Origin: a virus
Taxonomy: Duplodnaviria; Heunggongvirae; Uroviricota; Caudoviricetes
Length of the DNA stretch: 64,000 nucleotides
Strand: one strand, 5' to 3'
Virus record (IMG/VR): IMGVR_UViG_2795385649_000011
Shown here: positions 1 through 44,149 of the stretch, piece by piece
How positions within the stretch are numbered: position 1 is the stretch's first letter
How the letters are laid out: every line of letters starts with the position of its first letter
Notes under the pieces: generated by a model
Databases searched by the model: none
Told to the model about the DNA's origin: nothing
What the model saw: the letters and a program-made list of their open reading frames with translations, nothing else
Program-made: the position numbers and the translations under genes

Positions 1-1044
1 CTAGCGCCAGGCGCGCGAGAACTTCAGGAACGCGTCGTTTTCCATCGGTGCTCCGATGGTCACCCGGACGCCATCGGTTCCAAAGGGGCGCACAATGATT
101 CGGGCCTCGGCGGAGGCTTGCGCGAATTCGGTGGAGCGCTCGCCCAGCGGCAACCACACGAAGTTCGCCTGCGACGGCGGCACCTGATAGCCGGCTTCCC
201 GCAGCGCACTGGTCACCCGGGCGCGTTCGGTGACAACGTCATTGGTGCGCGCGAGCAGCTCTTCGGCGGCGCCGAGGGAAGCCACCGCGGCAGCTTGCGC
301 CAGGCTCGACGCGCTGAACGGTACGTACACCTTGCCCAGTGTGGTGATCACATCGGGATCGCCGACCGCGTAGCCGACTCGCAGCCCCGCCAGGCCGTAT
401 GCCTTTGAGAAGGTGCGTAAGACAACGACATTGGGGTGCTCACGCACCAGTGCGAGGCTGTCGGTGAAGTCCTCGCGTACGTACTCGACGTAGGCCTCGT
501 CGATCGCGATCAGGATATGCGGCGGCACCGACTCGACGAACCGCCGCAGTTCGGCGGGCCGCACCACGGTGCCGGTCGGGTTGTTGGGGTTGCAGACGAA
601 GATCAGCCGGGTGACGTCGGTTACGGCGGCCGCCATGGCGGCGAGGTCATAGGTGTGGTCGACCAGCGGTACCTGCACCGGAGTCGCCCCCGCGACCCGC
701 ACCACCAACGGATAGGTCTCAAAGGACCGCCAGCCGAACAGCACCTCGTCGCCCACCGTTGCGGTGATCTGGACCAGCTGCTGGCATAGGCTCACCGACC
801 CGCACCCCACCGCGATGTGCTCGGGCGGCATGTCGACGTGCTTGGCCAGGTGCGAGCGCAGCTCGGCGTAGCCATTATCGGGGTACCGATTGATCAGCGA
901 CCCCGCCTCGGCGAGGGCGGCCCGCACGCTCGGCAGCGGCTCCTGCACGGTCTCATTACTGGCGAGCTTGATGGCGCCGGGGACGTTTCGGCCCGGTGTG
1001 TAGGCCGGTAGTTCGGTCAGTTCGGGGCGAAGTCGTGCGGGCAC
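1..1044 (-). CDS. Class I/II pyridoxal-phosphate aminotransferase (histidinol-phosphate / aromatic aminotransferase family), host gene
   Basis: 347 aa ORF with an aminotransferase fold signature (LASNE, NPNNPTG, SKAYGLAGLRVGY, the lysine is the PLP site). Full length from M at 1044 to the stop at 1-3. Confidence 0.8.
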   Translation of the reverse strand: MPARLRPELTELPAYTPGRNVPGAIKLASNETVQEPLPSVRAALAEAGSLINRYPDNGYAELRSHLAKHVDMPPEHIAVGCGSVSLCQQLVQITATVGDEVLFGWRSFETYPLVVRVAGATPVQVPLVDHTYDLAAMAAAVTDVTRLIFVCNPNNPTGTVVRPAELRRFVESVPPHILIAIDEAYVEYVREDFTDSLALVREHPNVVVLRTFSKAYGLAGLRVGYAVGDPDVITTLGKVYVPFSASSLAQAAAVASLGAAEELLARTNDVVTERARVTSALREAGYQVPPSQANFVWLPLGERSTEFAQASAEARIIVRPFGTDGVRVTIGAPMENDAFLKFSRAWR

Positions 1045-2035: not shown

Positions 2036-2913
2036 TGTCCGCCGTCTCCGTGACCGCGATGTCGCCGACTGATGCGCGGGCACTCACCGAGAGCATCCGC
2101 AGCTCCGTCGATCGCGTCTGGGACCTCATAGCTAAGGCATACACCCAGCGGGCATGGGCTGTCCTCGGATACCCGTCCTGGGACGTGTACTGCGAGCGCG
2201 AGTTCGCCTCCACCTGGTTCAAGCTGCCCCGCGAGACCCGCGCCGAGGTAGTGCTGTCCCTCCGCGACTCCGGGCTCTCCACCCGCGCTATCGCGGCGGC
2301 AACCGGGGTCAGCCAGAGCACCGTGCAACGCGAACTCCCTGCACCCCCTACTGAGTCAAATGACTCAGTAGGACCCGTCACCGGCACCAACGGCAAGACC
2401 TACCAGCCGACCCAGCCGGTACGGCCCACGCTGACGGTTGTCCCAGACCTCCCGAATGAGCCCCCGGCGGCTGCCAATGCTGCGCCTCCCCCCGCGCAGG
2501 CGGCCACGGGCGCTCCCACGGTCTCGGAGGTGAGCGCTCCCCCCGCTGCCGCCACCTCCGAGACCGTGGAGAGCTTCGCCAAGTGCGTGTGCGGATCCAC
2601 CATGGCCCTCTACTCCGGGGCGGCAGACGAAGACCGCTTGGCCCTCCAGGACTGGCGCGACGAGCACCAGTCCTGCGTGCTCCCCACACCCGCCGCCCCC
2701 GTCCCGGTTCCCGTGCCCATCCCCCGCCGGAAGCCGATCACAGACTCCTTCGCCGAAGCCACCACGGCCATGACGAAGGCGGTGAAGCGGGTAGAGGCAC
2801 TGGCAGCCGACGACCGCTTCGACAAGAACGCGGACCAAATCGCCATCTACGCAAGCGATCTGATCCGCGCGCGAGACGCGCTGCAACGCGTCATCGAGAA
2901 GTTGCCCTCGTAA
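2032..2913 (+). CDS. Hypothetical protein with HTH segment and a Pro/Ala-rich linker
   Basis: 293 aa; TRAIAAATGVSQSTVQREL; low-complexity PAAP-type central region. Confidence 0.45.
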   Translation: MMSAVSVTAMSPTDARALTESIRSSVDRVWDLIAKAYTQRAWAVLGYPSWDVYCEREFASTWFKLPRETRAEVVLSLRDSGLSTRAIAAATGVSQSTVQRELPAPPTESNDSVGPVTGTNGKTYQPTQPVRPTLTVVPDLPNEPPAAANAAPPPAQAATGAPTVSEVSAPPAAATSETVESFAKCVCGSTMALYSGAADEDRLALQDWRDEHQSCVLPTPAAPVPVPVPIPRRKPITDSFAEATTAMTKAVKRVEALAADDRFDKNADQIAIYASDLIRARDALQRVIEKLPS

Positions 2914-2934
2914 ACCAGCAGAAGGAGCACCTCA

Positions 2935-3795
2935 GTGTCGAATGCTATCCCACTTCGGAGGAACCAAATGGTCACGTCCGATGTCGAGAGGATCGACGGC
3001 AAGCTCGCCGACGAGTACCTCAAGTTCAACGTCCGTAACCGGCCCCTCAGCGAGAAGAAGATTCTCCAGCTAGCCGCCGACATGGAGGCGGGCCGCTGGC
3101 AGTTCAACGGCGAGGCGATCAAGTTCAGCCTGGACGGCTCACTTCTCGACGGGCAGCACCGCCTCCACGCGATCTCCCTGTGCGGCGTGCCCGTGGAAAT
3201 GCTTGTGGTTCGGGGCCTGCCGGCGGAATCGCAGAGCACCATGGACCAGGGCCTCCGGCGGAGCGCATCCGATCAGCTGAACCTCGCCGGTATCAACTCC
3301 ACGAACTCGGATGCTTCCGCTGTCAAGACGTTCATGGTGTGGCAGCGCGGCTGGCTGTACACCGATAAGGCCTCCGGCGCTATCACGACCACGGATGTTG
3401 TGCAGTGGGCCACCGAGCATCCCGAGTTGTTCGAGCTCATCCGCAGGGGTGGCGCCTTCAATCGCGTGAAGGCCCGGCCCGGCCTGGTGCGTGCGGTGTT
3501 CGCAGGCATCGCGTACTGGCATGGGGTTGAGACAACCAGCGTGTTCTTCCAGCGAGTACTCGACGGTGCTGGGCTAGAGGCAGGCTCGCCAATCCTCGCC
3601 CTGCGTAACCGTTTAGACCGCGTGCGCGGCGAGGGCTTCAAGATTTCTGACCGCGAAGCCATCGGCTATTTCATTGTCGCGTTCAACCGCTGGATGACCG
3701 GCAGCCACATCGCGAAGCTCCAGCAGCCCAAGGGTGGGTGGAACGGAACGAACTTCCCCAAGGTTATCGGCACCACACAGCAGGTGCTCGCGTGA
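2935..3795 (+). CDS. ParB-like nuclease domain protein (ParB/Srx fold)
   Basis: LLDGQHRLHA ParB N-terminal signature; AAGGAG 12 nt upstream of the GTG start. Confidence 0.65.
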   Translation: MSNAIPLRRNQMVTSDVERIDGKLADEYLKFNVRNRPLSEKKILQLAADMEAGRWQFNGEAIKFSLDGSLLDGQHRLHAISLCGVPVEMLVVRGLPAESQSTMDQGLRRSASDQLNLAGINSTNSDASAVKTFMVWQRGWLYTDKASGAITTTDVVQWATEHPELFELIRRGGAFNRVKARPGLVRAVFAGIAYWHGVETTSVFFQRVLDGAGLEAGSPILALRNRLDRVRGEGFKISDREAIGYFIVAFNRWMTGSHIAKLQQPKGGWNGTNFPKVIGTTQQVLA

Positions 3796-4737: not shown

Positions 4738-5306
4738 GCGAGCTATGGGTTGTTGACGTTGAGACAACCGGATTGGACCGCAACCGGCACCTGCCGGTGG
4801 AGGTCGCGGCGATCCACTTGAAGACGGGCCGCGAAATCCATTTCGTCCCATTCATTTCGGCGGAGGCATTGGGCTACGCGGACCCAGAGTCGATGCGTAT
4901 CAACCGGTACTACGAGCGTGCCCTCTACCGCGATCAGCTCACCGATACCGCGACGCTGAACTGCTACCAGGACTTGTTCGAACTGCTGGACGGGAAGACC
5001 CTCGGCGGTGCTAACCCGCGATTTGACGCGGACATGCTGATAGCCGGTTACGAGCACGTCTGGCGTGCGCAGACCCGGACGAAAGAGCCTTGGCGGTATC
5101 GGCTCTCGGACCTATCTGCCTACACCGCAGGTCTTTTCCAGATCGACCCCGCCGACCCACCCGGCCTTGCGAGGTGCTGCGAGCTGCTGGGTGTCACCAA
5201 CACCGCCGAACACACGGCGCTCGGCGACACGCGGGCCACCCGAGATTGCTTCCGCCGCGCGTACGAGCGCGACAAGAAGGGAATAGGAGCCGATCCCCAT
5301 GCCTGA
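4734..5306 (+). CDS. DnaQ-like 3'-5' exonuclease (DEDDh family)
   Basis: Exo I VDVETTGLD, Exo III HTALGDTRAT; ATG overlaps the upstream stop (ATGA). Confidence 0.7.
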   Translation: MSELWVVDVETTGLDRNRHLPVEVAAIHLKTGREIHFVPFISAEALGYADPESMRINRYYERALYRDQLTDTATLNCYQDLFELLDGKTLGGANPRFDADMLIAGYEHVWRAQTRTKEPWRYRLSDLSAYTAGLFQIDPADPPGLARCCELLGVTNTAEHTALGDTRATRDCFRRAYERDKKGIGADPHA

Positions 5307-5640
5307 TATGTACAAGCTGCTCCGCGACCAGAACGCGCGCACCGAAGCAGCCAAGAAGCCAGAGACCGGCATATACCAGCTGGAGCCCACACCAAAGCCA
5401 CTGGAGCCAGGCAAGTTTGAGAAGTCAGTACTCCTCGCACTCCAAGGCTCCAACGTGTACGCGGGGTCCGTTCCCGTAGAGGAGGTAGAGCGACGGCGGA
5501 AGAAGAACCGCCACGCCCGCCGCGCCCGGCGCGGAAACACTGCGGCCATCGCCCGCCAGTCGCGCCTCAACTACGCACAGAAGCGTCGCCGCCGGTTCGC
5601 ACGAGGCAACGCGTACAACCCTCTGGCGGTCGAATCATGA
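5299..5640 (+). CDS. Hypothetical basic protein
   Basis: 113 aa ORF with Arg/Lys-rich C-terminus. Confidence 0.4.
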   Translation: MPDMYKLLRDQNARTEAAKKPETGIYQLEPTPKPLEPGKFEKSVLLALQGSNVYAGSVPVEEVERRRKKNRHARRARRGNTAAIARQSRLNYAQKRRRRFARGNAYNPLAVES

Positions 5641-5783
5641 GGCAGGGCTGGGCTTCACTGGCAGCCTCTTTCGTGTTCGCGGGCGTCGGCGCAGTGACAG
5701 CGCAGGGCGGATGGCTGGTACCCGCCATCGTCGCGGCGATGCTCTCGCACTACTTCTTCTCGGGGCGGAAGGGTAATCCGTGA
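5637..5783 (+). CDS. Small hydrophobic protein (48 aa)
   Basis: Short ORF filling the gap with ATGA overlap; predicted TM helix ASFVFAGVGAVTAQGGWLVPAIVAA. Confidence 0.3.
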   Translation: MRQGWASLAASFVFAGVGAVTAQGGWLVPAIVAAMLSHYFFSGRKGNP

Positions 5784-6571
5784 GGGCGCAGTGCCGACTC
5801 TGCAAAAGGCCGGTTGTAGGTCATGGCCTCTGTGACACCCACCGGAAACGGCATGTCTACCGCCTGCGGGCTTACGGACGTTTCGACAACGGAAGGCACT
5901 CCGTAGACGAAGCCCGCGAACGGCTTGCACAACTTCAAGCCGCCGGTATCGGGACGCGGCAGATACGGAGCCTCACCGGGCTATCGCGCAGCACCATCAT
6001 GCGATTAGCTGCTGCCGAACGCCGCTGGATCGACCGCCGCACCCACGAACTAATCATGGGCCTCGCTGTACCCGCGTCCGCTGTCGATCTCGCAAGCGCA
6101 TCAGCACTCGTGGATTCGACGGGTTCAGTGCGTCGCCTCCGCGCCCTCGCCCGGATCGGGTACGGCGGCCCGCAGATCACGGCCAGTCTGGGGCTCTCAG
6201 ACCCAACCGCCCTCAGCGGCTTGTACTCCGGAAGAGCCAAGAACGTCACGGCGCAACGTGCGCAAGCGATAGCCGACCTGTTCAACAAGCTGCAAATGAC
6301 CGAAGGCCCGAGCCGTGTCGCCCGCCAGCGAGCAACCCAAAAGGGTTGGCCGCTACCTCTCCAGTGGGACGAAGACACCATCGATGACCCCGCCGTGCAG
6401 CCGATCTACGGCAGCAATTTCAGCACCGCCACAGAGCGGCTGGAAGAACTCCAAGACATGGGCGTCACCGATACCTATCAGCTCGCGCAGAGGCTCGACG
6501 TGAAGCCGGAATCCGTTGAACGGCAGCTGCAACGGATCAAGGCCGCGACGAGGAAGGAAGGCGCAGCGTGA
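5780..6571 (+). CDS. Hypothetical HTH-containing protein with N-terminal Cys/His cluster
   Basis: 263 aa; CRLCKRPVVGHGLCDTH zinc-finger-like; IRSLTGLSRSTIMRL HTH. Confidence 0.45.
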   Translation: MRAQCRLCKRPVVGHGLCDTHRKRHVYRLRAYGRFDNGRHSVDEARERLAQLQAAGIGTRQIRSLTGLSRSTIMRLAAAERRWIDRRTHELIMGLAVPASAVDLASASALVDSTGSVRRLRALARIGYGGPQITASLGLSDPTALSGLYSGRAKNVTAQRAQAIADLFNKLQMTEGPSRVARQRATQKGWPLPLQWDEDTIDDPAVQPIYGSNFSTATERLEELQDMGVTDTYQLAQRLDVKPESVERQLQRIKAATRKEGAA

Positions 6572-6783
6572 CCAAAGCCAAGCCGGTGCCTGGCACCGTC
6601 GAAGCGTTCCCCCGGAAGGACAACGAAGGGTTCGCGTGGAAGTGGACCAGCCCCAAGGGGAATGAACACTTCAACTACGGCCCATACACCACAAAGGCTG
6701 TCGCCGCCGCAGCTGGCAGGAAATTCGCGCGGAACTTCACAGCCAAACCCGCCCACACCGAACCCGAACCGGACGACGTATGA
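6568..6783 (+). CDS. Hypothetical protein
   Basis: 71 aa ORF with 4-nt overlap coupling. Confidence 0.4.
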   Translation: MTKAKPVPGTVEAFPRKDNEGFAWKWTSPKGNEHFNYGPYTTKAVAAAAGRKFARNFTAKPAHTEPEPDDV

Positions 6784-14184: not shown

Positions 14185-14510
14185 GCGCCAACAACTGGAC
14201 TACCTGCTACGCCTGCCAGACCCGGCGCGCCGATGCTGATGACGAACGCATTGCCGAGCAGCGGAAGCTCATCGAAGACGCGTACGGACAGGTGTCACAG
14301 GAGGAATACGACAGCCTTCGCGGCCGCGTAGAGGCTGCAATCGCAGAGATCAAAGCGGCTCCGCTGGGCCGCACGTTCCGTGAGGACTACGAGATATATG
14401 GGGCTGAAACCGGTGTCGTGACAGTTAGTTACGGAGGTAGCTGCACCGTATGCGGCTACGGGACATCGTTCGAGGATCAGCATCCCATTCCGGTGAAGGC
14501 GGGTAAGTGA
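14181..14510 (+). CDS. Hypothetical protein
   Basis: GTG 14181; Cys pairs CYACQ...CTVCGYG. Confidence 0.35.
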   Translation: MSANNWTTCYACQTRRADADDERIAEQRKLIEDAYGQVSQEEYDSLRGRVEAAIAEIKAAPLGRTFREDYEIYGAETGVVTVSYGGSCTVCGYGTSFEDQHPIPVKAGK

Positions 14511-15475
14511 TGGGTGACAAGACAGGCATAGAGTGGGCCGACTCGACCTGGAACCCAATTACGGGTTGCGACAAGGTATCTCCAGGTTGTGACCACTGCT
14601 ATGCGGAGACGTTTGCCGAGCGCTGGCGAGGGACCGAGGGGCATTACTTCGAGCACGGGTTCGATGTTCAGTTGCGCCCCGACAAGCTCGCGTTGCCGCT
14701 GCGCTGGACCAAGCCGCGCAAGGTGTTCGTCAACTCGATGTCAGATCTGTTCCACGAAAAGGTGTCTGACGAGTACATAGCTCGCGTGTTCTCTGTCATG
14801 GCGTGCGCCGAGCGGCACACATTTCAACTCCTGACCAAGCGGCATGGGCGCATGCGGTCGCTGCTGAACTCAGAAGCATTCCGCGAGTTGGTATTCAAGT
14901 GCCAAGCGCTGGAGTTACCGGGCGATGTGATGGGCGACTACTGGCCGCTGCCCAACGTCTGGTTGGGAGTGAGCGCCGAGGACCAGAAGCGCGCCGACCT
15001 CCGCATCCCAGCACTGCTCGACACCCCCGCCGCCGTCCGGTTCATCAGTGCTGAGCCACTGCTCGGACCGATCGACCTCTCCCGGTTCGTGGAGGACGAT
15101 GGCGAGAAGTTCGACCTTCCGCCACTGAGTTGGGTGATCGTGGGCGGCGAATCCGGCCCCGGCGCAAGGCCGATGCACCCCGACTGGGCGCGATCGTTGC
15201 GCGACCAGTGCGTCGCGGCCGGTGTGCCATTCCTGTTCAAACAGTGGGGCGAGTGGGCACCCAACCAACATCCCCCGCTCCGTGCATGCGTCTGTGACTG
15301 GTACGACGGACGGGAGGCTGACATCTGCCGAAATGATCCTTGCCGCAAGCTGTCCAAGCCGCCGTATGTAGATGATCCACGAGCACAGATGCAACGTGTC
15401 GGCAAGAAGCGCGCCGGGCGTGAGCTGGACGGGCGCACGTGGGACCAGTACCCCGAGAAGGCGGTAGCCCAATGA
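14507..15475 (+). CDS. Phage Gp37/Gp68-family protein
   Basis: 322 aa with the characteristic N-terminus KTGIEWADSTWNPITGCDKVSPGCDHCYAE and conserved GESGPGARPMHPDW. Confidence 0.6.
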   Translation: MMGDKTGIEWADSTWNPITGCDKVSPGCDHCYAETFAERWRGTEGHYFEHGFDVQLRPDKLALPLRWTKPRKVFVNSMSDLFHEKVSDEYIARVFSVMACAERHTFQLLTKRHGRMRSLLNSEAFRELVFKCQALELPGDVMGDYWPLPNVWLGVSAEDQKRADLRIPALLDTPAAVRFISAEPLLGPIDLSRFVEDDGEKFDLPPLSWVIVGGESGPGARPMHPDWARSLRDQCVAAGVPFLFKQWGEWAPNQHPPLRACVCDWYDGREADICRNDPCRKLSKPPYVDDPRAQMQRVGKKRAGRELDGRTWDQYPEKAVAQ

Positions 15476-27315: not shown

Positions 27316-29016
27316 GTGGACGTTCTATCCTCGATCAGCACGCGGCGCACCCCTCAGGCCCAGAAGGCGGACCCGCGCCAGGTCAAGAACGCCGCCGGGG
27401 GCTACACCTTCCAGGCCGACGACTGGACCCGGCTCCACCGATTCCTGACCCTCGGCACGACCGGCGGCACCTACTACACCTCCGCCGAGGACCTCACCCG
27501 CGACGCCGCCGATGTCGTGATCCGGCTCGCCGCAACCGATCCCGTCACCCTCGTGCAGAAGATCGTTGAGGTCTCCGAGGCCGGACGCGCCCCCAAGCAG
27601 AACCCGGCCCTGTTCGCGCTCGCTATCGCTTCGGCCTCCGAGAACGTGGAAGGCCGCCGTGCCGCCGCCGCCGCACTGCCCCGAGTCGCGCGCACCGCCA
27701 CCCACCTGTACCTGTTCACCAAGTACATGGAGCAGTTCCGGGGCTGGGGACCGGCGATGAAGCGCGCCGTCTCCAGCTGGTACCTGGACAAGCCCGTGGA
27801 CCGGCTCGCCTACCAGCTGGTCAAGTACCGGCAGCGTGACGGCTGGACCCACCGCGACATGCTCCGGCTCAGCGGCCCCGCCACCAGCGACCCCGCACGC
27901 CGCATGGCGTTCAACTGGGCTGTCGGCAAGGGGCTCAACGACTACAACTGGAAGCAGCCGCTCCTCACTCCGGAGCAGCTCAAGGCCGGAGAGCGCAACC
28001 CCGCTCTACCGAAGCTGCCCAATGTGGAACTGGCTGACGGGCACCCGCTTGCCATCATCGCGGACTACGAAGCCGCGCAGCGTGCCACCACCGTCAACGA
28101 GTGGCTGGCGATCATCCGCCGGGGCAACGGCCTACCGTGGGAGGCGTTCCCCGACAAGGCCCTCACCGAGCCTGCGATCTGGGAGGCGCTGATCGAGCAC
28201 GGCCTCCCGCAGACCGCCCTCATGCGGCAGCTGCCCCGCCTAACCCGCCTCGGCGTGCTGAACGGTCAGCTCGGCAGCCGGGTCTCCGCGCAGCTCCAGG
28301 ACACAGACCGGCTACGAAAGGGCCGCGTCCACCCGATCAATGTCCTTGTCGCACAGCGCACCTATGCCTCTGGGCGTTCTGCGCGCGGTGAGTCCACCTG
28401 GACTCCGAACCGCCGCATCGTTGACGCGCTCGACGCCGCGTTCTACAACGCCTACGGCGCCGTCGAGCCCTCGGGTAAGCGGACCCTGCTGGCACTGGAC
28501 ATCTCCGGCTCCATGAGCGCCGCGATCTCCGGTATGCCGCTGACGTGCCGCGAGGCCGCCGCCGCGCTCGCACTGGTGACCGCCAACGTGGAGCCCAACC
28601 ACGACATCATCGGGTTCACCGCCGGGGCCGGTGGGAGCTTCCGCTCATCAGGGATCACGGAGTTGGACATCACGCCGCGCCGCCGCCTCGATGACGTGTG
28701 CCGATACACCGCAGGCCTCCCTATGGGCGCTACCGACTGCGCGCTCCCCATGATCTGGGCGAAGGCGCAGCTTCGCCCCTACGACGCCATCGTGATCCTC
28801 ACCGACAACGAGACCTGGTACGGGGGTATCCACCCGCACCAGGCTCTCACCGAGTACCGGAACAAGCTCAGCCTGGACACCAGCCTGATGGTGGTCGCGA
28901 TGACCGGCGGTCGGCAGACCATCGCAGATCCTTCGGACCCGCGCCAGCTCGACGTGTCCGGGTTCGATAGCGCTGTACCGCAGCTCATCTCGGACTTCGC
29001 CCGAGGTGACCTGTAA
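27316..29016 (+). CDS. rsr: Ro60 ortholog Rsr: TROVE-domain RNA-binding protein with C-terminal vWA (MIDAS) domain
   Basis: 566 aa; N-terminal TROVE-like region; C-terminal vWA with MIDAS motif LLALDISGSMS...T...TD; AAGGAG RBS before the GTG start. Directly downstream of the five Y RNA-like genes. Confidence 0.7.
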   Translation: MDVLSSISTRRTPQAQKADPRQVKNAAGGYTFQADDWTRLHRFLTLGTTGGTYYTSAEDLTRDAADVVIRLAATDPVTLVQKIVEVSEAGRAPKQNPALFALAIASASENVEGRRAAAAALPRVARTATHLYLFTKYMEQFRGWGPAMKRAVSSWYLDKPVDRLAYQLVKYRQRDGWTHRDMLRLSGPATSDPARRMAFNWAVGKGLNDYNWKQPLLTPEQLKAGERNPALPKLPNVELADGHPLAIIADYEAAQRATTVNEWLAIIRRGNGLPWEAFPDKALTEPAIWEALIEHGLPQTALMRQLPRLTRLGVLNGQLGSRVSAQLQDTDRLRKGRVHPINVLVAQRTYASGRSARGESTWTPNRRIVDALDAAFYNAYGAVEPSGKRTLLALDISGSMSAAISGMPLTCREAAAALALVTANVEPNHDIIGFTAGAGGSFRSSGITELDITPRRRLDDVCRYTAGLPMGATDCALPMIWAKAQLRPYDAIVILTDNETWYGGIHPHQALTEYRNKLSLDTSLMVVAMTGGRQTIADPSDPRQLDVSGFDSAVPQLISDFARGDL

Positions 29017-29671: not shown

Positions 29672-29838
29672 GTAGCGGCCCTTTCCATATCGTGAACCGG
29701 CTCAACGGGAAGCACGTTGGCCCGTTCACGACTGAAACGGACTGCGCGCTAGCGAAAACCATTGCTACACCGGACTGGACAACGGGAATTGTCATGGACA
29801 AGAAGCAATTCAAGAAGCACTTGGAGCGTGGACTGTGA
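29668..29838 (+). CDS. Hypothetical small protein (56 aa)
   Basis: ATG 29668, stop 29836-38 overlapping the next GTG start. Confidence 0.3.
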   Translation: MSSGPFHIVNRLNGKHVGPFTTETDCALAKTIATPDWTTGIVMDKKQFKKHLERGL

Positions 29839-30692
29839 GTACAGAAGCACGCCACGGCACGGAGCGGCACCGCGCTATCGCGGACGAGAACACGATTCTT
29901 CGTGGGCAGGTCGGCTCCGGCCTGCATGGTGTCACGACCGGCGCCGACGACCGCGACGAAATGGGCATCTGCATCGAACCTCCCGAGGCCGTAATCGGTT
30001 TGGAGAAGTTCGAGCAGTACATGTACCGCACCCAACCGGACGGCGCCCGCTCCGGCCCCGGCGACCTCGATCTGTGTGTCTACAGCCTGCGGAAGTGGAC
30101 ACGGCTGGCCGCCAATGGCAATCCCTCAGTGCTGCTGATGCTTTGGATACCCGACAATGAGCTGACGGTGAAAAGCCAACTCGGCGCCGAACTTCAGGCA
30201 GCCTCGGAGATGTTCGTCACCACGCAGGCTGGACAGAAGTTCTTGAGCTACTTGAACTCTCAGCGTGAAGGACTCGAAGGTACCCATCACCGGCACACCA
30301 ACCGGCCCGAACTCATCGAACAGTACGGTTTCGACACCAAGTACGCGTATCACGCCCTGCGCCTCGGCATGCAGGGTATCCAGCTCGTCACGGAGAGGAA
30401 GCTGCACCTGCCGATGGTCAAGGCCCATCGTGATGCGCTGCTCCGCGTTCGGCGCGGCGAGACCTCGCTCCCCGAGGTGAAGAGCTGGCTCGCGGATCTG
30501 ACCTGGAGTCTGGAGCACTTCATCTCGACCGAGCCTCTGCCGGATACCCCGGACTGGGTTCGGATCAACACGTGGTTGGTTGATATGTACCAGCGGCACT
30601 GGCGTACTCGCGGTACCAGGTCCGAAGCCCGACTCTCCGGCGCGATCCGAAACGCACACAACATCGCCGTCAGTCGAAGTAGATGGCGATGA
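29835..30692 (+). CDS. Pol-beta-superfamily nucleotidyltransferase with helical C-terminal domain
   Basis: N-terminal NTase motif GQVGSGLHGVTTGADDRDEMGI (GS...[DE]x[DE]); 285 aa. Confidence 0.55.
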   Translation: MSTEARHGTERHRAIADENTILRGQVGSGLHGVTTGADDRDEMGICIEPPEAVIGLEKFEQYMYRTQPDGARSGPGDLDLCVYSLRKWTRLAANGNPSVLLMLWIPDNELTVKSQLGAELQAASEMFVTTQAGQKFLSYLNSQREGLEGTHHRHTNRPELIEQYGFDTKYAYHALRLGMQGIQLVTERKLHLPMVKAHRDALLRVRRGETSLPEVKSWLADLTWSLEHFISTEPLPDTPDWVRINTWLVDMYQRHWRTRGTRSEARLSGAIRNAHNIAVSRSRWR

Positions 30693-38229: not shown

Positions 38230-38471
38230 TGACGCACCTGGCACCCCACCAGGGACTCGTGGGTGTAGTTATCGGCGGTGTCGTCCATGTCGAGAAACAT
38301 TCAGGGGTCTATGGGTTCGGCGGACTTACACCTGACTTAGAACCACTCGACCGCCCGGACCCGCTCACCCGCGCCCACACGCTCATCGCAGATACCCATT
38401 GGACGGTGCGCTACCTCACCGCGCCACGGTGGAAGCGACCGTTCCTGCGCCTGCTCCGGTGGTTGCGCTGA
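38229..38471 (+). CDS. Hypothetical protein
   Basis: ATG 38229 in frame with track ORF 38025..38471. Confidence 0.35.
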   Translation: MTHLAPHQGLVGVVIGGVVHVEKHSGVYGFGGLTPDLEPLDRPDPLTRAHTLIADTHWTVRYLTAPRWKRPFLRLLRWLR

Positions 38472-38695
38472 TGGCAGACAACGTCATCCAACTCGGCGAG
38501 CACCGCACCCCACCGACCACCAACCACCAGTGCGTCAAATGCGGTAGCGAATGGTTCCGCCTGGACGGCACCCTGGCCGGACCGGGCGCACCCGCCCACG
38601 GCGCCGTGGTGCTGGCAGCCGACGATCGCATGCGCATCACCGGTTACTGCGGTACACCCCGCTGCCTGGAGTGCGGCCACCTGGTGGCGGTCTAG
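38471..38695 (+). CDS. Small zinc-ribbon protein
   Basis: CVKCGSEWF...CGTPRCLECGH. Confidence 0.4.
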   Translation: MADNVIQLGEHRTPPTTNHQCVKCGSEWFRLDGTLAGPGAPAHGAVVLAADDRMRITGYCGTPRCLECGHLVAV

Positions 38696-39423
38696 TGCTG
38701 TTCGTGGTGGTTGGTCCGCCGGCAGCAGGCAAGTCCACATGGGTGCGGGACAACTCGCGGCCCGGTGACATCACCATCGACTACGACGCCCTCGCCTGCA
38801 CCCTCACCCCACAAGACGACAGCCCCCACCGCCACGACCACCCCGACCACGTGAAGGCAGTCACCAAGGCGGCCCGACAGGCAGCCATCGACACCGCCCT
38901 CACCCTCGTCGGTGAGCACGACGTGTTCCTGATCCACTCCACCCCGAGCACCGCGATGCTCACGAAGTACCGCTCGTACGGCGCTGAGGTCATCACCATC
39001 GACCCCGGCCAAGACACCGTCATGGAACGCGCACGCGCCGAACGGCCATGGCAGCTACAGGGCGCCATCAAACGCTGGTACGAGGAACACCCCACCACCG
39101 GCAGCACCCCCGCCCAGCATGTGCCCGGCCTCGACGCACAAGGACGCCCACGCGGCCGCCACTACCAAGAACTCAAGGCCACCTTCCGTAAGGAGTGCGA
39201 GGAGCGCGGCGACGTGTGCTGGCTGGACCAGCGCCCCATCGACTACAGCCTCAAAGCACCCCACCCGGACAGTTTCTCCGTGGACCACGCCATCCCGGTA
39301 TCCGAGGCCCCCGAGCTCGCGCTGGACCCCAGGAACTTCCGACCCAGCCACCTGAACTGCAACATCCGCCGAGGCGACGCCGAACCCAACATCGCCATCG
39401 GCCAACCGTCCGAAACCTGGTAA
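38695..39423 (+). CDS. P-loop NTPase / kinase-like domain fused to a C-terminal HNH endonuclease
   Basis: Walker A VVVGPPAAGKST at the N-terminus; C-terminal SVDHAIPVSE...HLNCNIRRGD HNH motif. Confidence 0.5.
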   Translation: MLFVVVGPPAAGKSTWVRDNSRPGDITIDYDALACTLTPQDDSPHRHDHPDHVKAVTKAARQAAIDTALTLVGEHDVFLIHSTPSTAMLTKYRSYGAEVITIDPGQDTVMERARAERPWQLQGAIKRWYEEHPTTGSTPAQHVPGLDAQGRPRGRHYQELKATFRKECEERGDVCWLDQRPIDYSLKAPHPDSFSVDHAIPVSEAPELALDPRNFRPSHLNCNIRRGDAEPNIAIGQPSETW

Positions 39424-39828
39424 CCCGCCAGCTAACAACGCCCCACACCCAGCTAACACCCGGACACCGTTGGCTAACACCCCTCCCAACCTCGGGGAAC
39501 GAGGCGAGTTAGCCAACCGCGCCAACACCGCTGCGGGCCCACCCCACCACCATCGCTGTACGAGCACACACCCGAACGACCCCGACCCAGAGACGAACCC
39601 CTCGTCACCAGGCCCCAACGGACCACACGGCCACCGCAGATACCCGGGGGCGGGGTGAAAAGTTGCCCGCCGAACCCAAGGTCCCTCGGACCGGCAAGGG
39701 TTCCGCCCCCCCTCGAAAAATGTTGCCAAGAAGTTAGCCAGCAGCTACCAGCTAGGAGCGCGCCCGCATGACTGACCCCACAGTTAACACCGCAGGTACC
39801 GCAGTTAATTCGGCTGCGCGGCTTACCC
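39424..39828. repeat. Non-coding region with at least 7 copies of an (A/G)GCTAACA motif in both orientations (candidate parS-like or terminase/cos recognition sites)
   Basis: AGCTAACA at 39430 and 39451, GGCTAACA at 39472, inverted GTTAGCCA at 39508 and 39733, AGCTACCA at 39743, AGTTAACA at 39782. Confidence 0.5.
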
Positions 39829-40464
39829 GTGTCCCAGCTAAAAACCTTCAAGGGCAACCCGCGTAGAGGTTCGGTCCCGGATATCGCGGCCTCGCTTACC
39901 GCCAATGGCCAGTACCGGCCCATCGTGGTGAACCGTGGGACGCACACCGGGCGCCCCAACGAGGTGTTGGCCGGTAACCACACCTTGCTCGCGGCGCGGG
40001 AACTCGGCTGGGCAGATATCGACTGCTGGCTGGTGGACGTGGATGAGCAGCAGGCCAAGGCGATTGTCGTTGCTGACAACAAGATCCCAGCCTTGGGTGG
40101 GTACGACAACGAGGCGTTGCTGGAAATCCTGGAGTCCCTGGACACCCTGGATGGCACCGGTTACGTGCAAGACGATCTCGATGACCTGGCGGCGGCCCTG
40201 GAGGAGCTGGAACCGGTGCCGGAGGACGAGTTGGCCGGAAACCAGGGCACCGCAACGTCCCTGGAGGACTTGAAGACCAACTATGACCAGTCCGACCAGC
40301 GGATGGTCGTGATGACGTTCGTCGGCGACGAGTACCTGTGGGTGGTCGAGACGTTGCAGCGGGTGGCGGACGCTCACGCACTGGAGAGCAACGCATCCGT
40401 GTTGGTGCACCTGCTCAAGCAGGAAGAGACCGCGCTGGACGCAGCGCCAGCGGTCGCGGAGTGA
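39829..40464 (+). CDS. ParB-like N-terminal domain protein
   Basis: GQYRPIVVNRGT...VLAGNHTLLAARELG ParB/Srx motif; acidic C-terminus. Confidence 0.6.
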   Translation: MSQLKTFKGNPRRGSVPDIAASLTANGQYRPIVVNRGTHTGRPNEVLAGNHTLLAARELGWADIDCWLVDVDEQQAKAIVVADNKIPALGGYDNEALLEILESLDTLDGTGYVQDDLDDLAAALEELEPVPEDELAGNQGTATSLEDLKTNYDQSDQRMVVMTFVGDEYLWVVETLQRVADAHALESNASVLVHLLKQEETALDAAPAVAE

Positions 40465-41297
40465 CACCGGTGGAGCGGCTGAGTTTACGGCGGGTGGTGA
40501 GCCCGGAGGAGGCGACAACCCTCGTCGGTACGCGGGTCGGGGAGCACGAGCCGACCCACAGCGAGCCATTCATCGCTACAGACGCCGATACCGGTGAGAC
40601 CGTGATGGCGGTGCTGCCGGTGGAGGCGCCGGATCTGCGGCGGGCCTGCCTGTCATTGAAGTACACGGATCTGCGGCGTGCGTCGGGCGCGAAGAACCTG
40701 TCGGCCAACTTCGGGTACCAGCCCCGGCGGCCAAGCTACAGCCGCGACGCGTGCCGGGCGTCCGGTGTCGCCAAGGAGTTCCCGGCAGCCGAGGCAGCGC
40801 TGGATGCGTGGGCCGGGGCGCTGGCGAGGATGCTCCGCCAAATTGACGCGAAAATCGAGGCCCGCGACCGGGAAACCATGCTCCAGGTCGGATCTACCTG
40901 GAAGCTGGGCGATTCCGAGCTCTGGACTTCGGGTGTCATCAACCGGAGCTCGACGCTGCCCTACCACCGCGACGGGTTCAACTTCCCAACCTGGAGCGCG
41001 ATGCCAGTGTTCCGGCGCGGCATGAACGGTGGGCACCTGCACATCCCCGAGTACGGGGTGGTGCTGCCGTGCCGAGACAGCACCGCGGTCTTCTTCCCGG
41101 GTCATCAGCTGGTGCATGGGGTCACCCCGATGCAGCTCCGTAAGCCGGACGGATACCGGCTGAGCGTCGTCTATTACGCCCTCAAGGGCATGAAATCGTG
41201 CTTGGAGGGTGCATTGGAGACTGAATACGCCCAAAAGGCGCGCACCGCTCGGGAGCAGAATCAGGCGCGGCTCATCGCTGAGCGGAGGCAGCCCTAG
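40461..41297 (+). CDS. 2OG-Fe(II) dioxygenase, candidate TET/JBP-family nucleic-acid base hydroxylase
   Basis: GTG overlapping the upstream TGA; HxD (LPYHRDGF), distal His (LVHGVTP) about 55 aa later, then Arg (LRKPDGYR), which is the DSBH 2OG-oxygenase spacing. Confidence 0.45.
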   Translation: MTPVERLSLRRVVSPEEATTLVGTRVGEHEPTHSEPFIATDADTGETVMAVLPVEAPDLRRACLSLKYTDLRRASGAKNLSANFGYQPRRPSYSRDACRASGVAKEFPAAEAALDAWAGALARMLRQIDAKIEARDRETMLQVGSTWKLGDSELWTSGVINRSSTLPYHRDGFNFPTWSAMPVFRRGMNGGHLHIPEYGVVLPCRDSTAVFFPGHQLVHGVTPMQLRKPDGYRLSVVYYALKGMKSCLEGALETEYAQKARTAREQNQARLIAERRQP

Positions 41298-42154
41298 TGA
41301 GGCGCGCCCCGGCCCGCGAGTACCAGATCGTGATCCCCTCCTACCAGCGCGCCGAAGGGCTGGAGCGGAAGACGCTCGCCTGGCTGAACGCGACCGGAGT
41401 GGACCCGGCCCGGATCACGGTGTTCCTCCACGACAACGATCCGCAGCTGGAGGCCTACCAGGAGGTGGCCGGCAGGACGGGTGTCCGCCTCAACGCCACC
41501 CCGATGCGCGGTATCACGGCACAGCGGACCTACATACCCACCCAGTTCGCGCCTGGTACCCCGATTGTGTGCCTGGACGACGACGTGACGGGCCTGGTGG
41601 AGGCAGTGGACTCGAAAACCCTTCGCCCCGTGGCTGATGTGGATTCACTGTTCCGGCGGATGTTCACCGAGACCGCTGGGCGGGACCTGTACGTGTGGGG
41701 TCTGTCGCCGGTCGTCAATGCCTTCTACATGTCGCCGGGCCGCGTCAGCGAAGGCCTCCGATTTCTGATCTTCACCGTGATCGGGTTCTTCAACCGGCCC
41801 GGCCATCCCGTCCACGAGTTCACCGTCCCGTACAAGGACGAGCACGAAACGAGCCTGCGCGCATGGTGGTACGACGGTGGCACAGTCCGGCACGACGGAA
41901 TTGCCGCCCAAGCGAACTACTACACGGACCCTGGCGGCTGCCAGGCGCCCGGTGAGTTCCAAAGAACCCCCGCCAAGGTCGCTTTCAGCGTCGAGGAGCT
42001 GGAGAAGCAGTGGCCGGGCCTGGTGCGCAGGAACACCCGCAAGAAGGACACCGGCTACATCGAGATCACCCTCGCCCCGAAGAAGCGGCACGCCGGGCAC
42101 CCCCCGACCACGCCGCCACCCGGCGTCCGCTCCGCGAAGGCCGGGGGCCGGTGA
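41297..42154 (+). CDS. GT-A-fold glycosyltransferase-like protein (candidate TET/JBP-associated base glycosyltransferase)
   Basis: N-terminal YQIVIPSYQRAEGL Rossmann-like start and DxD-like CLDDDV; translationally coupled to the dioxygenase. Confidence 0.4.
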   Translation: MRRAPAREYQIVIPSYQRAEGLERKTLAWLNATGVDPARITVFLHDNDPQLEAYQEVAGRTGVRLNATPMRGITAQRTYIPTQFAPGTPIVCLDDDVTGLVEAVDSKTLRPVADVDSLFRRMFTETAGRDLYVWGLSPVVNAFYMSPGRVSEGLRFLIFTVIGFFNRPGHPVHEFTVPYKDEHETSLRAWWYDGGTVRHDGIAAQANYYTDPGGCQAPGEFQRTPAKVAFSVEELEKQWPGLVRRNTRKKDTGYIEITLAPKKRHAGHPPTTPPPGVRSAKAGGR

Positions 42155-42585
42155 CGGACCGGATCACCCGGGCCAAGCGCGACGCGCAAGTGCTCCAGCT
42201 GTTCATCGCTGGTGTCCCGTACCGGCAGATCGGTGAGCGGCACAACATCACTCACACCGCCGTCGAGAAGATCGTTCAGCGGGAGATGGCCAAGGCGGCG
42301 AAACGCCGTGATTACTTAGCGGATCAGGCGTTGGCGATGCACGTGGAGCGCTCGGAGGCGCTGTTTCGGGCCCATTTCGGCAACGCGCTGAACGGCGACG
42401 TGAAAGCAGCCGAGTTCTGCCGGAGGCTCCTCGCACAGCAGACCCGGCTCTACGGGCTGGACGCCGCGACGCCAGGGATGAACGAGCCGCCGAACCTGCC
42501 CGACCCGGACGACGAGGGCGACGACGGCGACGAAGCCCCGGTGAGCGACCTTGACGACTGGCGTCGTAAGCGCACCAACGCTTAA
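42151..42585 (+). CDS. Terminase small subunit (HTH, sigma-70 region-4-like)
   Basis: LQLFIAGVPYRQIGERHNITHTAVEKIV HTH; acidic tail; directly upstream of TerL. Confidence 0.6.
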   Translation: MTDRITRAKRDAQVLQLFIAGVPYRQIGERHNITHTAVEKIVQREMAKAAKRRDYLADQALAMHVERSEALFRAHFGNALNGDVKAAEFCRRLLAQQTRLYGLDAATPGMNEPPNLPDPDDEGDDGDEAPVSDLDDWRRKRTNA

Positions 42586-44149
42586 GGGGTACACCAAACC
42601 CCGCCTGTACACGCCGCCCCTCACCGCGCACTGCGACCCCAGCCGCCCGGATGCCTGCGAGTGCGGCTGTGGTCTGAACCCGGATACCTCCTGGGGATTC
42701 GAGTGCATCGGTTTTCTGGAGAATTTCCTCGGCTGGACGCTCCTGCCGTACCAAAAGTGGCTGTATATCCACGCTTTGGAGAAAGGCGCGGACGGTACAG
42801 GGTTCCGGCTCCGCACAGTCGTCATCCTCATCGCGCGGCAGAACGGGAAGACCCAGTGGCTTAAGGGGCTTGGCCTCTGGCGGCTGTACCTGGACAGCAA
42901 GGGCATATCGACTGCCGGGTGCCCGGCCGCCAAGACGGTGGTCATCGCGGCACAAGGGCTGGAGTACGCGGAGGGCACGCTCTCCGCCGTCGTGGATGAC
43001 GTGAAGGAATCCTCGAAGCTCCGGCTGGAGTTTGTCCGGCACCGTACCGCCAACGGCAAGCACGCGATGTTCCTAACCGGGAAACGGTCCTGGCGGGCTG
43101 TCGCCCAGAACCGAAAAGCGGGACGCTCCTTCTCAATTGACCTCGCAATGCTCGATGAGCTTCGTGAGCACACCAATTGGGAGACCTGGGACGCGGTTGT
43201 CCCCACCACCACCGCCCGTAAGTACAGCCAAGCCGTTACCGCCAGTAACGCCGGGGACAAGAAATCCATCGTGCTGCGGTCGGTCCGGGACGGCTGCTTG
43301 CAGGCGATAATCGCCGGTAAGACCGAGGAGACCCAGCTCGGGTTGTTCGAGTGGTCCGCGCCGGATGAATCTGACCCGTACGACCGTTCCGTCTGGCCGA
43401 TGGCGAACCCGGCGATGGGCTGGCTTGACGGGCACGACGAAGCGTCCGTCGCGGGGAAGCTCGAAGCGAAACGCGCTGACATCGCCGGGTTTAAGACTGA
43501 ACACCTATGCCAGTGGGTTGATTCGCTAGCCCCCGGCATCATCCCCGCCGAAGACTGGCAAGCCACCTTGGATGAGCTGTCGCGGCGAGCTGAGGGGGCG
43601 CCTGTGTGGGCTGCCGTTGATGTGAATTGGCAACGATCACGCGGCTACGTCGCAATCGCCGCCCGCCGAGCCGACGACCTACTCCACGTGGAAGTTGTTG
43701 CAGCGGAGCGCGGTACCGACTGGATCATTCCGTGGTTCAAGGCACGCCCCGGAAAGTTCCAGACCGTCGCCGTGCAGGCGCGCGGCGCTCCGGCCTCAGG
43801 GTTCATCGAGGACATGGTCGAGGCCGGTATCCCGGTCCTGGAATGGGGCGGCGGCGACCTCACCAAGGGCTGCGGCGACTTCTACGACCAGGTAGTACAG
43901 CGAATTGTCCGCCACCGCTCGCAACCCGCCCTAGATACAGCTGCCGTCGCGACAGTCGCCAAAAAGCTCGGTGACGCATGGGTTTTCGACCGGCAAGGCA
44001 GTCCCATCGACGCAAGCCCCCTCGTCGCCTGCGCGGCGGCTGCATGGGCTGAATCAGTCCGGCTCGCCGGACCCGAAAAGGTGCCTGACGTGCACGAATG
44101 GCCTTCCGAGGAGGAAATCATGGAGTGGCAGAAAGAAGACCTCTACTGA
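42551..44149 (+). CDS. Terminase large subunit
   Basis: 532 aa; ATPase P-loop-like ILIARQNGKTQ followed by a nuclease domain; start codon uncertain (TTG in track). Confidence 0.75.
   Translation: MTTGVVSAPTLKGYTKPRLYTPPLTAHCDPSRPDACECGCGLNPDTSWGFECIGFLENFLGWTLLPYQKWLYIHALEKGADGTGFRLRTVVILIARQNGKTQWLKGLGLWRLYLDSKGISTAGCPAAKTVVIAAQGLEYAEGTLSAVVDDVKESSKLRLEFVRHRTANGKHAMFLTGKRSWRAVAQNRKAGRSFSIDLAMLDELREHTNWETWDAVVPTTTARKYSQAVTASNAGDKKSIVLRSVRDGCLQAIIAGKTEETQLGLFEWSAPDESDPYDRSVWPMANPAMGWLDGHDEASVAGKLEAKRADIAGFKTEHLCQWVDSLAPGIIPAEDWQATLDELSRRAEGAPVWAAVDVNWQRSRGYVAIAARRADDLLHVEVVAAERGTDWIIPWFKARPGKFQTVAVQARGAPASGFIEDMVEAGIPVLEWGGGDLTKGCGDFYDQVVQRIVRHRSQPALDTAAVATVAKKLGDAWVFDRQGSPIDASPLVACAAAAWAESVRLAGPEKVPDVHEWPSEEEIMEWQKEDLY

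Follow-up and report, generated by a model that had tools for sequence, protein, structure and literature searches.

The window considered here, that is, the whole stretch of 64,000 nucleotides (64 kb) from the IMG/VR record IMGVR_UViG_2795385649_000011, encodes directly upstream of its terminase genes a ParB-like protein, a 278-aa dioxygenase, and a 285-aa glycosyltransferase (GT). These three proteins are almost certainly a TET/JBP-family DNA dioxygenase, a TET-associated glycosyltransferase (TAGT), and the cognate ParB. The gene families, folds, catalytic residues, coupling of the genes, and synteny are established here. For the complete pathway, in which ParB-activated conversion of thymine (T) to 5-hydroxymethyluracil (5hmU) would be followed by the formation of base-J-like glycosyl-5hmU in phage DNA, the probability is put at roughly 0.6. 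Systems of this kind have already been defined experimentally in papers published between 2021 and 2026 and the window adds another member, so the novelty of the system itself is limited. An earlier sequence-only reading of this DNA had proposed a hypermodification cluster of four genes upstream of the terminase. The ParB-like protein, dioxygenase, and GT hold their place in it by family, fold, and synteny, whereas the fourth gene, coding for a P-loop–HNH fusion, does not. All four open reading frames (ORFs) lie on the + strand at the coordinates that were read from the sequence, and their GC content at third codon positions (GC3), 0.77-0.87, is typical of real genes.

The dioxygenase

The 278-aa protein (40461-41297, + strand) is a Fe(II)/2-oxoglutarate DNA dioxygenase of the TET/JBP family (5mYOX), identified by PF12851, phrog_6059, its fold, and its active site. 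The metal- and 2-oxoglutarate-binding triad HxD/H/R, recognized already in the sequence-only reading, is found in the motifs LPYHRDG (H169, D171), LVHGVTP (H219), and PDGYR (R233). In an alignment of 58 homologues (46-98% identity), residues H169, R170, D171, H219, and R233 are invariant. The second histidine is the one in LVHGVTP, as had been proposed; its distance from H169 is, however, 50 residues and not ~55. The sole Pfam match is PF12851 (Tet_JBP; E 1e-5, 25.3 bits, with a gathering score of 34.9), and NCBIfam gave no usable match for the dioxygenase, the GT, or the P-loop–HNH protein. Many phage 5mYOXs escape the PF12851 model (O'Toole et al., PNAS 2026, PMC13229309), and a 98%-identical homologue and many other relatives of the window protein carry PF12851 in precomputed tables. 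The protein falls in phrog_6059 with E 1.8e-82, and its family comprises 636 homologous proteins at E<=1e-5, many of them with PF12851.

The structural comparison leads to the same family. A search of the PDB with the family profile gave NgTET1 as the best match (E 0.017). The AlphaFold2 model of the dioxygenase (pLDDT 90.1, pTM 0.84) has a beta-rich core formed by residues 157-239, and in the Foldseek search against the PDB the top 26 matches are all TET-family structures, including NgTET1, Chlamydomonas CMD1, human TET2, and Coprinopsis CcTet (E 1.8e-11 to 2.9e-9). The first 2-oxoglutarate oxygenase from outside the TET family appears at E 2.8e-8, and most of the later ones at 1e-7 to 1e-5. 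Since TET-family structures fill the top ranks, and the Pfam and profile searches point the same way, the enzyme groups with TET/JBP and not with protein or small-molecule hydroxylases, the grouping that the sequence-only reading had named as the one that would speak against it.

The invariant C247 is followed by 31 residues, with a helix spanning 247-275 and conserved A251, E253, R261, and E265. An extension of this kind past the last conserved cysteine was described as exclusive to ParB-dependent 5mYOXs (PMC13229309), and NgTET1 was reported as the top Foldseek match of ParB-dependent phage enzymes (bioRxiv 10.1101/2025.08.14.668559). The dioxygenase is a single catalytic domain with this C-terminal helix; the J-DNA-binding domain and the SWI2/SNF2 domain are not present. 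It would act like JBP but is not a member of kinetoplastid JBP1/JBP2. By analogy with the characterized phage enzymes, the 278-aa protein is predicted to be a ParB-dependent thymine dioxygenase that converts T to 5hmU.

The ParB-like protein

The gene directly upstream (39829-40464, + strand; ParB_N, phrog_723) encodes the putative ParB-like activator, which has 211 aa in the window and 231 aa in most near-identical prophages. Its N-terminal domain, of the ParB/Srx nucleotide-binding type, is followed by a short helical stretch, by ~50 aa of acidic linker, and by what is probably a small C-terminal domain. The family is supported by Pfam ParB_N (E 3.9e-4), phrog_723 (E 4e-51), and a ParB/MTase_II match in PADLOC. 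With a profile built from 14 TET-associated ParBs, the match to the Noc, ParB, and Spo0J structures is confined to their N-terminal domains (E 2.5e-8, profile positions ~7-115), and neither profile nor domain searches detected a helix-turn-helix (HTH) DNA-binding domain in the protein. The kelch-repeat matches obtained in a PDB search with the single sequence were spurious and are superseded by the profile search. After the acidic linker, the sequence alignment shows a conserved C-terminal block with R158, W171, and N188. A comparable organization, an N-terminal nucleotide-binding domain and a C-terminal domain without a DNA-binding domain, was described for 5mYOX-associated ParBs (PMC13229309).

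In the dioxygenase-associated ParBs (the window protein and 72 homologues), Box I (NPR) and Box III (DN) are retained, whereas Box II reads GNHT(x)2AA in place of the GERRxRAA of segregation ParBs. The replacement of GERR by GNHT makes canonical CTP hydrolysis doubtful. It is in line with this that mutations in the NTP site do not abolish ParB activation of the dioxygenase (PMC13229309).

The ParB-like ORF at 39829 had been read correctly, although its start turns out to be shifted. Compared with four near-identical prophages, the window contains a 1-nt insertion (an extra T near 39823) that puts the conserved ATG at 39768 out of frame, and the protein starts at GTG 39829, 20 codons shorter than its counterparts. 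It can be asked whether the module is decaying in this prophage, the frameshift leaving the dioxygenase unactivated and the DNA unmodified. The exact 211-aa protein occurs on 4 public contigs and the intact 231-aa form on 38, and deletions in the N-terminal domain of ParB abolish activation in the tested system (PMC13229309), both of which are compatible with decay. However, the GTG at 39829 restores an ORF that keeps all conserved ParB positions from N10 onward, and the 20 lost residues are not conserved in the family, so the function of ParB may be retained. The remaining genes are all intact and the 211-aa variant recurs in several assemblies. Decay of the module is thus considered improbable.

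The glycosyltransferase and the coupling of the genes

The third gene (41297-42154, + strand) encodes a TAGT of 285 aa with the GT-A fold, assigned from PF20691, phrog_25200, fold, and motifs. The PF20691 TAGT score of 30.2 bits exceeds the gathering score of 27.5, and the match to phrog_25200 has E 3.5e-32. In 45 homologues, R77 and D95-D96 show no variation and D94 almost none, the aspartates being part of the LDDDV motif. The third, EDY-type motif is KDEHE in the window and K(E/D)DYE in relatives, which gives the family pattern K(D/E)(D/E)(H/Y)E. This set corresponds to the R...DDD...EDY/F motifs of phage GT-A DNA glycosyltransferases. In the AlphaFold2 model (pLDDT 95.3), PDB matches show the GT-A fold, the best of them being protein and teichoic-acid glycosyltransferases; the best matches in BFVD are TAGT-domain proteins of phages (E 3e-22 to 1e-10, TM 0.64-0.79). 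A protein identical to this GT is labeled 'GREB1-related protein' in NCBI/UniRef. The threshold-passing TAGT match, the fold, the DDD motif, and the phage structural matches bear out the proposal, made at first from the sequence, of a GT-A-like, TET-associated glycosyltransferase. The enzyme is predicted, by analogy, to glycosylate the hydroxymethyl group made on DNA by the dioxygenase.

The genes of the module overlap at each junction. The stop codon of the ParB gene and the start codon of the dioxygenase gene overlap in GTGA, the dioxygenase and GT genes overlap by 1 nt in TAGTG, and the GT gene overlaps the gene of the candidate small terminase (TerS) in GTGA, which gives a TerS start at 42151. 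Such overlapping start and stop codons from ParB through TerS indicate that the translational coupling, noticed first between dioxygenase and GT, is real, includes the ParB gene, and reaches the terminase genes. In translation, the ParB–dioxygenase–GT module forms the head of the terminase (packaging) operon.

Gene neighborhoods of related dioxygenases

The neighborhood survey covered 94 loci, collected from annotated phages, contigs of close homologues, 80 IMG/VR loci, and 5 genome loci; 84 of them constitute the diverse set. The window proteins and the neighbor proteins of phages Wooper and Cooper served as queries. In all 77 diverse loci whose upstream sequence is long enough, the dioxygenase is directly preceded by a ParB homologue, and the gap between the two genes has a median of 27 nt. 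This constancy, and the agreement with the published subclass (PMC13229309), make the ParB-like gene a part of the system, as had been suspected.

The position directly after the dioxygenase varies. It is occupied by a GT homologue (28-62% identity) in 21 of 83 diverse loci, by an amino-acid:DNA transferase (AADT, PF18724) in 24/83, by a PF18751 P-loop kinase in 3/83, and by another gene or nothing in 35/83. The PF18751 kinase accompanies the AADT in 21 of 24 loci and the GT in only 4 of 21, so that 17/21 GT loci have no kinase. This distribution fits the chemistry, because an AADT depends on a phosphorylated 5hmU as leaving group, whereas for a GT the hydroxyl can serve directly. GT-linked loci are enriched near the window dioxygenase (8 of the 20 closest relatives and 13 of the 64 remaining loci), and they are interspersed with AADT-linked loci, which indicates that the tailoring gene has been shuffled.

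These neighborhoods also bear on the acceptor of the GT. One might suppose that the dioxygenase and ParB make 5hmU or further oxidized forms, and that the GT modifies something other than DNA, such as virion proteins or the cell envelope, as some mycobacteriophage glycosyltransferases do. GT-A enzymes are versatile, the best PDB matches act on proteins or teichoic acid, and the gene adjoins structural and packaging genes. Yet the GT scores above the threshold for TAGT specifically, its best viral structural matches are TAGT-domain proteins, and it is kept directly after the dioxygenase, with a stop/start overlap, in 21 diverse loci whose other genes differ. Moreover, the same slot alternates between the GT and the DNA-modifying AADT. 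A non-DNA acceptor is therefore regarded as quite unlikely.

Two public labels met in this survey need correction. Cooper gp3 (1806-2387) is a PF18751 kinase (239 bits), 51% identical to Wooper gp4 (2512-3057; '5-hmU DNA kinase'); the name 'terminase small subunit' given to Cooper gp3 and phrog_4581 is a legacy name of the PF18751 kinase, and the TerS candidate of the window is the protein at 42151-42585. The gp2 proteins of cluster B phages, recorded as 'queuine tRNA-ribosyltransferase', are TET/JBP dioxygenases. The same name, carried by phrog_6059, was rejected for the window protein, as its only Pfam match is Tet_JBP and its fold is TET-like. Both legacy misannotations persist in public records and PHROG names.

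Thymine or cytosine as the substrate

A scan of six frames of the whole 64-kb window found no motif IV (PCQxFS) of C5-cytosine methyltransferases (C5-MTases) and no motif IV/VI pair, and none of the 44 upstream proteins gave a DNA_methylase match in Pfam. These searches agree with the sequence-only reading, in which no such enzyme was seen; of the two substrates it left standing, thymine as in JBP or 5-methylcytosine (5mC) made elsewhere, the first is better supported. The absence of a C5-MTase from the window, together with the 5hmU-processing enzymes that occupy the GT slot in related loci, points to thymine as the likely substrate, with glycosyl-5hmU as the likely product. The AADT and the PF18751 kinase are known as 5hmU-processing enzymes (PMC13229309; PMC8256090). 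Phage 5mYOX clade C1 consists of thymine dioxygenases encoded beside a ParB homologue (PMC13229309). With ParB, clade C1 enzymes made 5hmU both in E. coli and in vitro; in E. coli DNA it was found only with the cognate ParB, and in vitro ParB was required on double-stranded DNA (dsDNA; PMC13229309).

The same three proteins could instead act on cytosine, a C5-MTase of the host or of the prophage providing 5mC that would be turned into 5-hydroxymethylcytosine (5hmC) and glycosyl-5hmC, as in the systems of Burke et al. 2021 and Pyle et al. 2024. Every phage GT-A DNA glycosyltransferase with a demonstrated product acts on 5hmC, and the window is not the whole prophage, near-identical viral contigs being 73-75 kb long. 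Against this stand the 64 kb without a C5-MTase motif or Pfam match and the gene order, since 5mC-type phage TETs adjoin their MTase (PMC8256090) whereas here C5-MTase-like motifs lie within 6 kb in only 4 of 94 loci. The sister loci contain thymidine-hypermodification enzymes, and when MTases were co-expressed, the ParB-associated enzymes of clade C1 yielded no 5hmC, whereas with ParB they yielded 5hmU (PMC13229309; PMC8256090). The cytosine pathway is, on balance, unlikely, though it keeps some weight.

Several points weigh against the thymine pathway as a whole. The Tet_JBP score of the dioxygenase lies below the curated threshold (25.3 vs 34.9). The ParB lacks its first 20 codons and has Box II GNHT, which may mean a different mode of action or an impaired copy in this prophage. 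Tested phage T-dioxygenases oxidize 5mC too in vitro (PMC13229309), a property that also speaks for the cytosine pathway, and a C5-MTase could be encoded in the part of the prophage beyond 64 kb or in the host. The published ParB-dependent examples were emphasized with kinases, AADTs, and GATases rather than GTs (PMC13229309), and a literature search gave no report of glycosylated 5hmU in phage DNA. Finally, the window enzyme is assigned to the ParB-dependent subclass, whose tested members include 5mYOX176, 177, and 185, from features and synteny.

The P-loop–HNH gene and the upstream gap

Upstream of the module, the + strand ORF at 38695-39423 encodes a 242-aa fusion of a P-loop domain (AAA_33/PNK-like) and an HNH domain. 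The N-terminal half has the Walker A motif GPPAAGKST and a Pfam AAA_33 match of E 7.8e-6, the C-terminal half scores 23.3 bits with PF01844 (cut-off 21.4), and PADLOC gave weak HNH matches only. Both domains and the upstream position are thus as first read. The role of a kinase-like component, also proposed at that time, is not borne out.

A four-gene pathway would give this protein a working role, for example, as a 5hmU DNA kinase or as a nuclease that depends on modification and leaves modified phage DNA intact. In favor of it are the position of the gene, immediately upstream of the module and on the same strand, the frequent presence of P-loop kinases in clusters for thymidine hypermodification (PMC13229309; PMC8256090), and the co-occurrence of endonucleases with 17% of 5mYOX contigs (PMC13229309). 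The kinase role was nevertheless rejected. No match of the protein to PF18751 (Ploopntkinase3, 5hmU DNA kinase) was found at E below 0.1, whereas Wooper gp4 and Cooper gp3 score 199-239 bits, and in BLASTP the fusion shares with these kinases the Walker A motif only. A non-coding gap of 406 bp (39423-39829) separates its gene from the ParB gene. None of the 84 diverse ParB–dioxygenase loci contains a homologue; homologues were found only in the near-identical prophages and in prophiT37-1, whose gp71 shows 57% identity along its full length. The prophage prophiT37-1 has neither a TET gene nor a GT, and its gene order is P-loop–HNH, a fusion of ParB_N with an N6/N4 methyltransferase, TerS, and the large terminase (TerL). 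Being kept in a TET-less prophage and absent from the diverse loci, the P-loop–HNH fusion probably belongs to the backbone of this lineage and not to a swappable modification module. An HNH gene beside the terminase genes is reportedly the usual layout in HK97-like packaging modules. The protein is therefore probably, as far as its distribution and domains suggest, a packaging-associated HNH protein of the lineage backbone outside the modification module, and the four-gene pathway is considered very unlikely.

The 406-bp gap contains GCTAACA heptamers at 39431, 39452, and 39473 (+ strand), which are exactly 21 bp apart and the only three in the 64-kb window, and inverted GTTAGC copies at 39508 and 39733. 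The array is kept in near-identical prophages and absent from prophiT37-1 and from distant ParB–dioxygenase loci. Judging from the repeat pattern, it is probably a protein-binding array, for example, a pac/TerS site, a regulator site, or a ParB loading site. A scan of 38300-42700 for promoters and terminators gave nothing above chance. One speculative proposal is that the base-J-like mark is nucleated at a GCTAACA loading site and is not random, and that the HTH-less ParB, the dioxygenase, and the GT act as DNA is fed to the terminase. The ParB domain would then be an interchangeable loader for DNA-modifying enzymes that are unrelated to each other, as its fusion to the methyltransferase in prophiT37-1 suggests. 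We regard this as a long shot. If it were true, base-J-type DNA would occur naturally outside eukaryotes for the first time, and in prophages carried by a clinical pathogen, with possible consequences for phage therapy and for the restriction barriers of M. abscessus.

Proposed mechanism

We infer the substrate base, the dependence on ParB, the sugar, and the biological role from family, gene context, and homologous systems, and the pathway is proposed as follows. The module would be post-replicative, with three overlapping genes heading the late packaging operon. Because the module is co-translated with TerS and TerL, its chemistry would take place late, on DNA that is soon to be packaged. 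The dioxygenase would hydroxylate thymine at its C5-methyl in double-stranded phage DNA, giving 5hmU, as its family and context suggest. By analogy with the experiments on homologous pairs, ParB would be the cognate activator needed on dsDNA, and its action would be mediated by the N-terminal ParB/Srx domain and the small C-terminal domain, not by a DNA-binding HTH. Next, the TAGT enzyme would use a nucleotide-sugar and its DDD metal site to form base-J-like 5-(glycosyloxymethyl)uracil. ParB, dioxygenase, GT, and terminase would be produced together late in lytic growth, the DNA being packaged after modification. In the next host, the modified virion DNA would then be protected from restriction or from other nucleases.

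If the pathway is correct, virions of a widespread prophage of the M. abscessus complex would contain glycosylated hydroxymethyluracil, a bacterial-virus counterpart of trypanosome base J. Work on ParB-activated thymine dioxygenases has so far been limited to metavirome genes that were expressed in E. coli. The window would place them in a cultivable, clinically relevant host, in which the native product, specificity, timing, and role are genetically testable. Such a modification could alter the passage of restriction barriers, with a bearing on phage therapy of M. abscessus, and could hamper the sequencing and cloning of phage DNA.

Relation to known systems

The closest parallel is the 5mYOX176/ParB176 system of O'Toole and co-workers, in which a ParB also lies directly upstream of a TET/JBP-fold dioxygenase of ~280 aa. 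In both cases, the dioxygenase extends C-terminally past the last conserved cysteine and has NgTET1 as its top structural match, and the module is beside terminase genes with no adjacent C5-MTase. The ParB of the published system has a nucleotide-binding domain, a linker, and a C-terminal domain, and no HTH, and the window ParB probably shares this layout, its C-terminal part being seen as a conserved sequence block. The differences concern the partner, which in the window is a TAGT glycosyltransferase rather than the kinase, AADT, or GATase emphasized in that work, and the ParB, which has Box II GNHT and has lost its first 20 codons. The window is also an integrated prophage of a clinical actinobacterium, unlike the metavirome contigs of that study. 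On contigs retrieved with the ParB-dependent profile, GTs were found at ~32%, ParBs at ~29%, terminases at ~21%, and C5-MTases at ~6% (O'Toole et al., PMC13229309), and by these frequencies the ParB–dioxygenase–GT–terminase layout lies within the diversity already surveyed.

Similar pairs are encoded by gp1-gp2 of the Mycobacterium phage Cooper and its cluster B relatives and of the Gordonia phages Wooper and MossRose, with ParBs 38-40% and dioxygenases 45-47% identical to those of the window, in the same ParB–dioxygenase order directly upstream of the terminase. In Wooper, the dioxygenase is followed by an AADT (PF18724), a PF18751 kinase, and a hypothetical protein, and in Cooper by the kinase only. 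The window, in contrast, has the TAGT glycosyltransferase and no PF18751 kinase, and it is an integrated prophage, which these phages are not.

As in kinetoplastid base J, made by JBP1/JBP2 and the base-J glucosyltransferase JGT, two steps on polymer DNA are predicted, from T to 5hmU and then O-glycosylation by a GT-A enzyme. Phage GT-A enzymes that glycosylate TET-made 5hmC in DNA resemble the trypanosome JGT (Burke et al. 2021, PMC8256090; Pyle et al. 2024). Unlike JBP1/JBP2, the window dioxygenase has the catalytic domain only and a separate ParB-like activator; its likely purpose is protection of virion DNA, whereas base J serves transcription control. The phage clusters of C5-methyltransferase, TET, and GT (PMC8256090; Pyle et al. 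2024) also make a TET hydroxymethyl handle after replication and use a neighboring GT-A enzyme with R...DDD...EDY/F motifs. However, they always contain an adjacent C5-methyltransferase and act on GpC cytosines, while the window has no such gene and belongs to the ParB-linked, thymine-type lineage.

A different arrangement is found in prophiT37-1, whose gp72 (5031-6593), the ParB_N–N6/N4 methyltransferase fusion mentioned above, occupies the same slot between the P-loop–HNH gene and TerS/TerL. Its ParB domain is 64.5% identical to the window ParB over 124 aa. There, the domain is fused to the methyltransferase, whereas in the window ParB is a separate protein followed by the dioxygenase and GT. 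The slot between HNH and TerS thus holds either a ParB–methyltransferase fusion or ParB with dioxygenase and GT, and the comparison of the sequences suggests that the ParB domain serves as a shared front end for interchangeable DNA-modifying enzymes. The exchange in a sister prophage would be a natural comparison for the role of ParB in DNA-modifying enzymes.

The prophage and its other genes

The window (64% G+C) is most of a prophage of ~73-75 kb of the Mycobacteroides abscessus complex, integrated beside a tRNA. This is concluded from the host gene and tRNAs at its edge, from GT and TerL proteins shared with mycobacterial assemblies, and from the length of the near-identical IMG/VR viral contigs. 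The edge consists of a host gene for a histidinol-phosphate/aromatic aminotransferase (1-1044, minus strand), identical in protein sequence on at least 1000 Mycobacteroides abscessus contigs, and of tRNA-Ser(GCT) (1181-1270) and tRNA-Arg(ACG) (1318-1391), both found in the Rfam scan. With this aminotransferase gene and the tRNA pair, the region 1-1391 probably represents the side of the prophage at which the attachment site lies. An integrase was not found within the 64-kb window, so its gene is probably located beyond it. The GT and TerL proteins are residue-for-residue identical in assemblies of M. abscessus, M. saopaulense, M. chelonae, and M. salmoniphilum. The prophage is not in INPHARED, where the nearest records, prophiT37-1 and prophiGD43A-5, have ~72% nucleotide identity in the terminase region only, and the locus is not reported in literature surveys of M. 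abscessus prophages.

Beyond the tRNAs, nearly all genes are on the + strand, early genes being followed by the packaging and structural block. The TerS candidate (42151-42585, + strand) is a small terminase-like HTH protein with HTH_23 and phrog_645 matches; its length of 144 aa is likewise assigned by gene callers in near-identical contigs, and it is 45.6% identical to prophiT37-1 gp73, itself directly upstream of the prophiT37-1 terminase. TerL (42551-44149, + strand; 532 aa) matches phrog_9 with E 4.5e-68 and has the public name 'terminase large subunit [Mycobacteroides]'. TerS and TerL are the context of the module and not part of its chemistry. Downstream of TerL, there are genes for the portal, S78 protease, HK97-type capsid, tape measure, and tail.

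The prophage also encodes a Ro60-like protein of 566 aa with TROVE and Ro60 vWA domains (27316-29016) and an RlaP-family nucleotidyltransferase of the RNA repair pathway (29835-30692). In the Rfam scan of the entire 64 kb, the two tRNAs were the only RNAs found; a Y RNA at or above the gathering score was not seen beside the Ro60 gene or elsewhere. The early genes include those for a 322-aa DUF5131 protein (14507-15475; E 9e-104), two DUF7736 proteins, DUF6283, DUF2303, and DUF4326 proteins, a Band_7/SPFH protein, and a Tox-REase-5 domain protein, and no obvious nucleotide-sugar or DNA-modification enzyme is among them.

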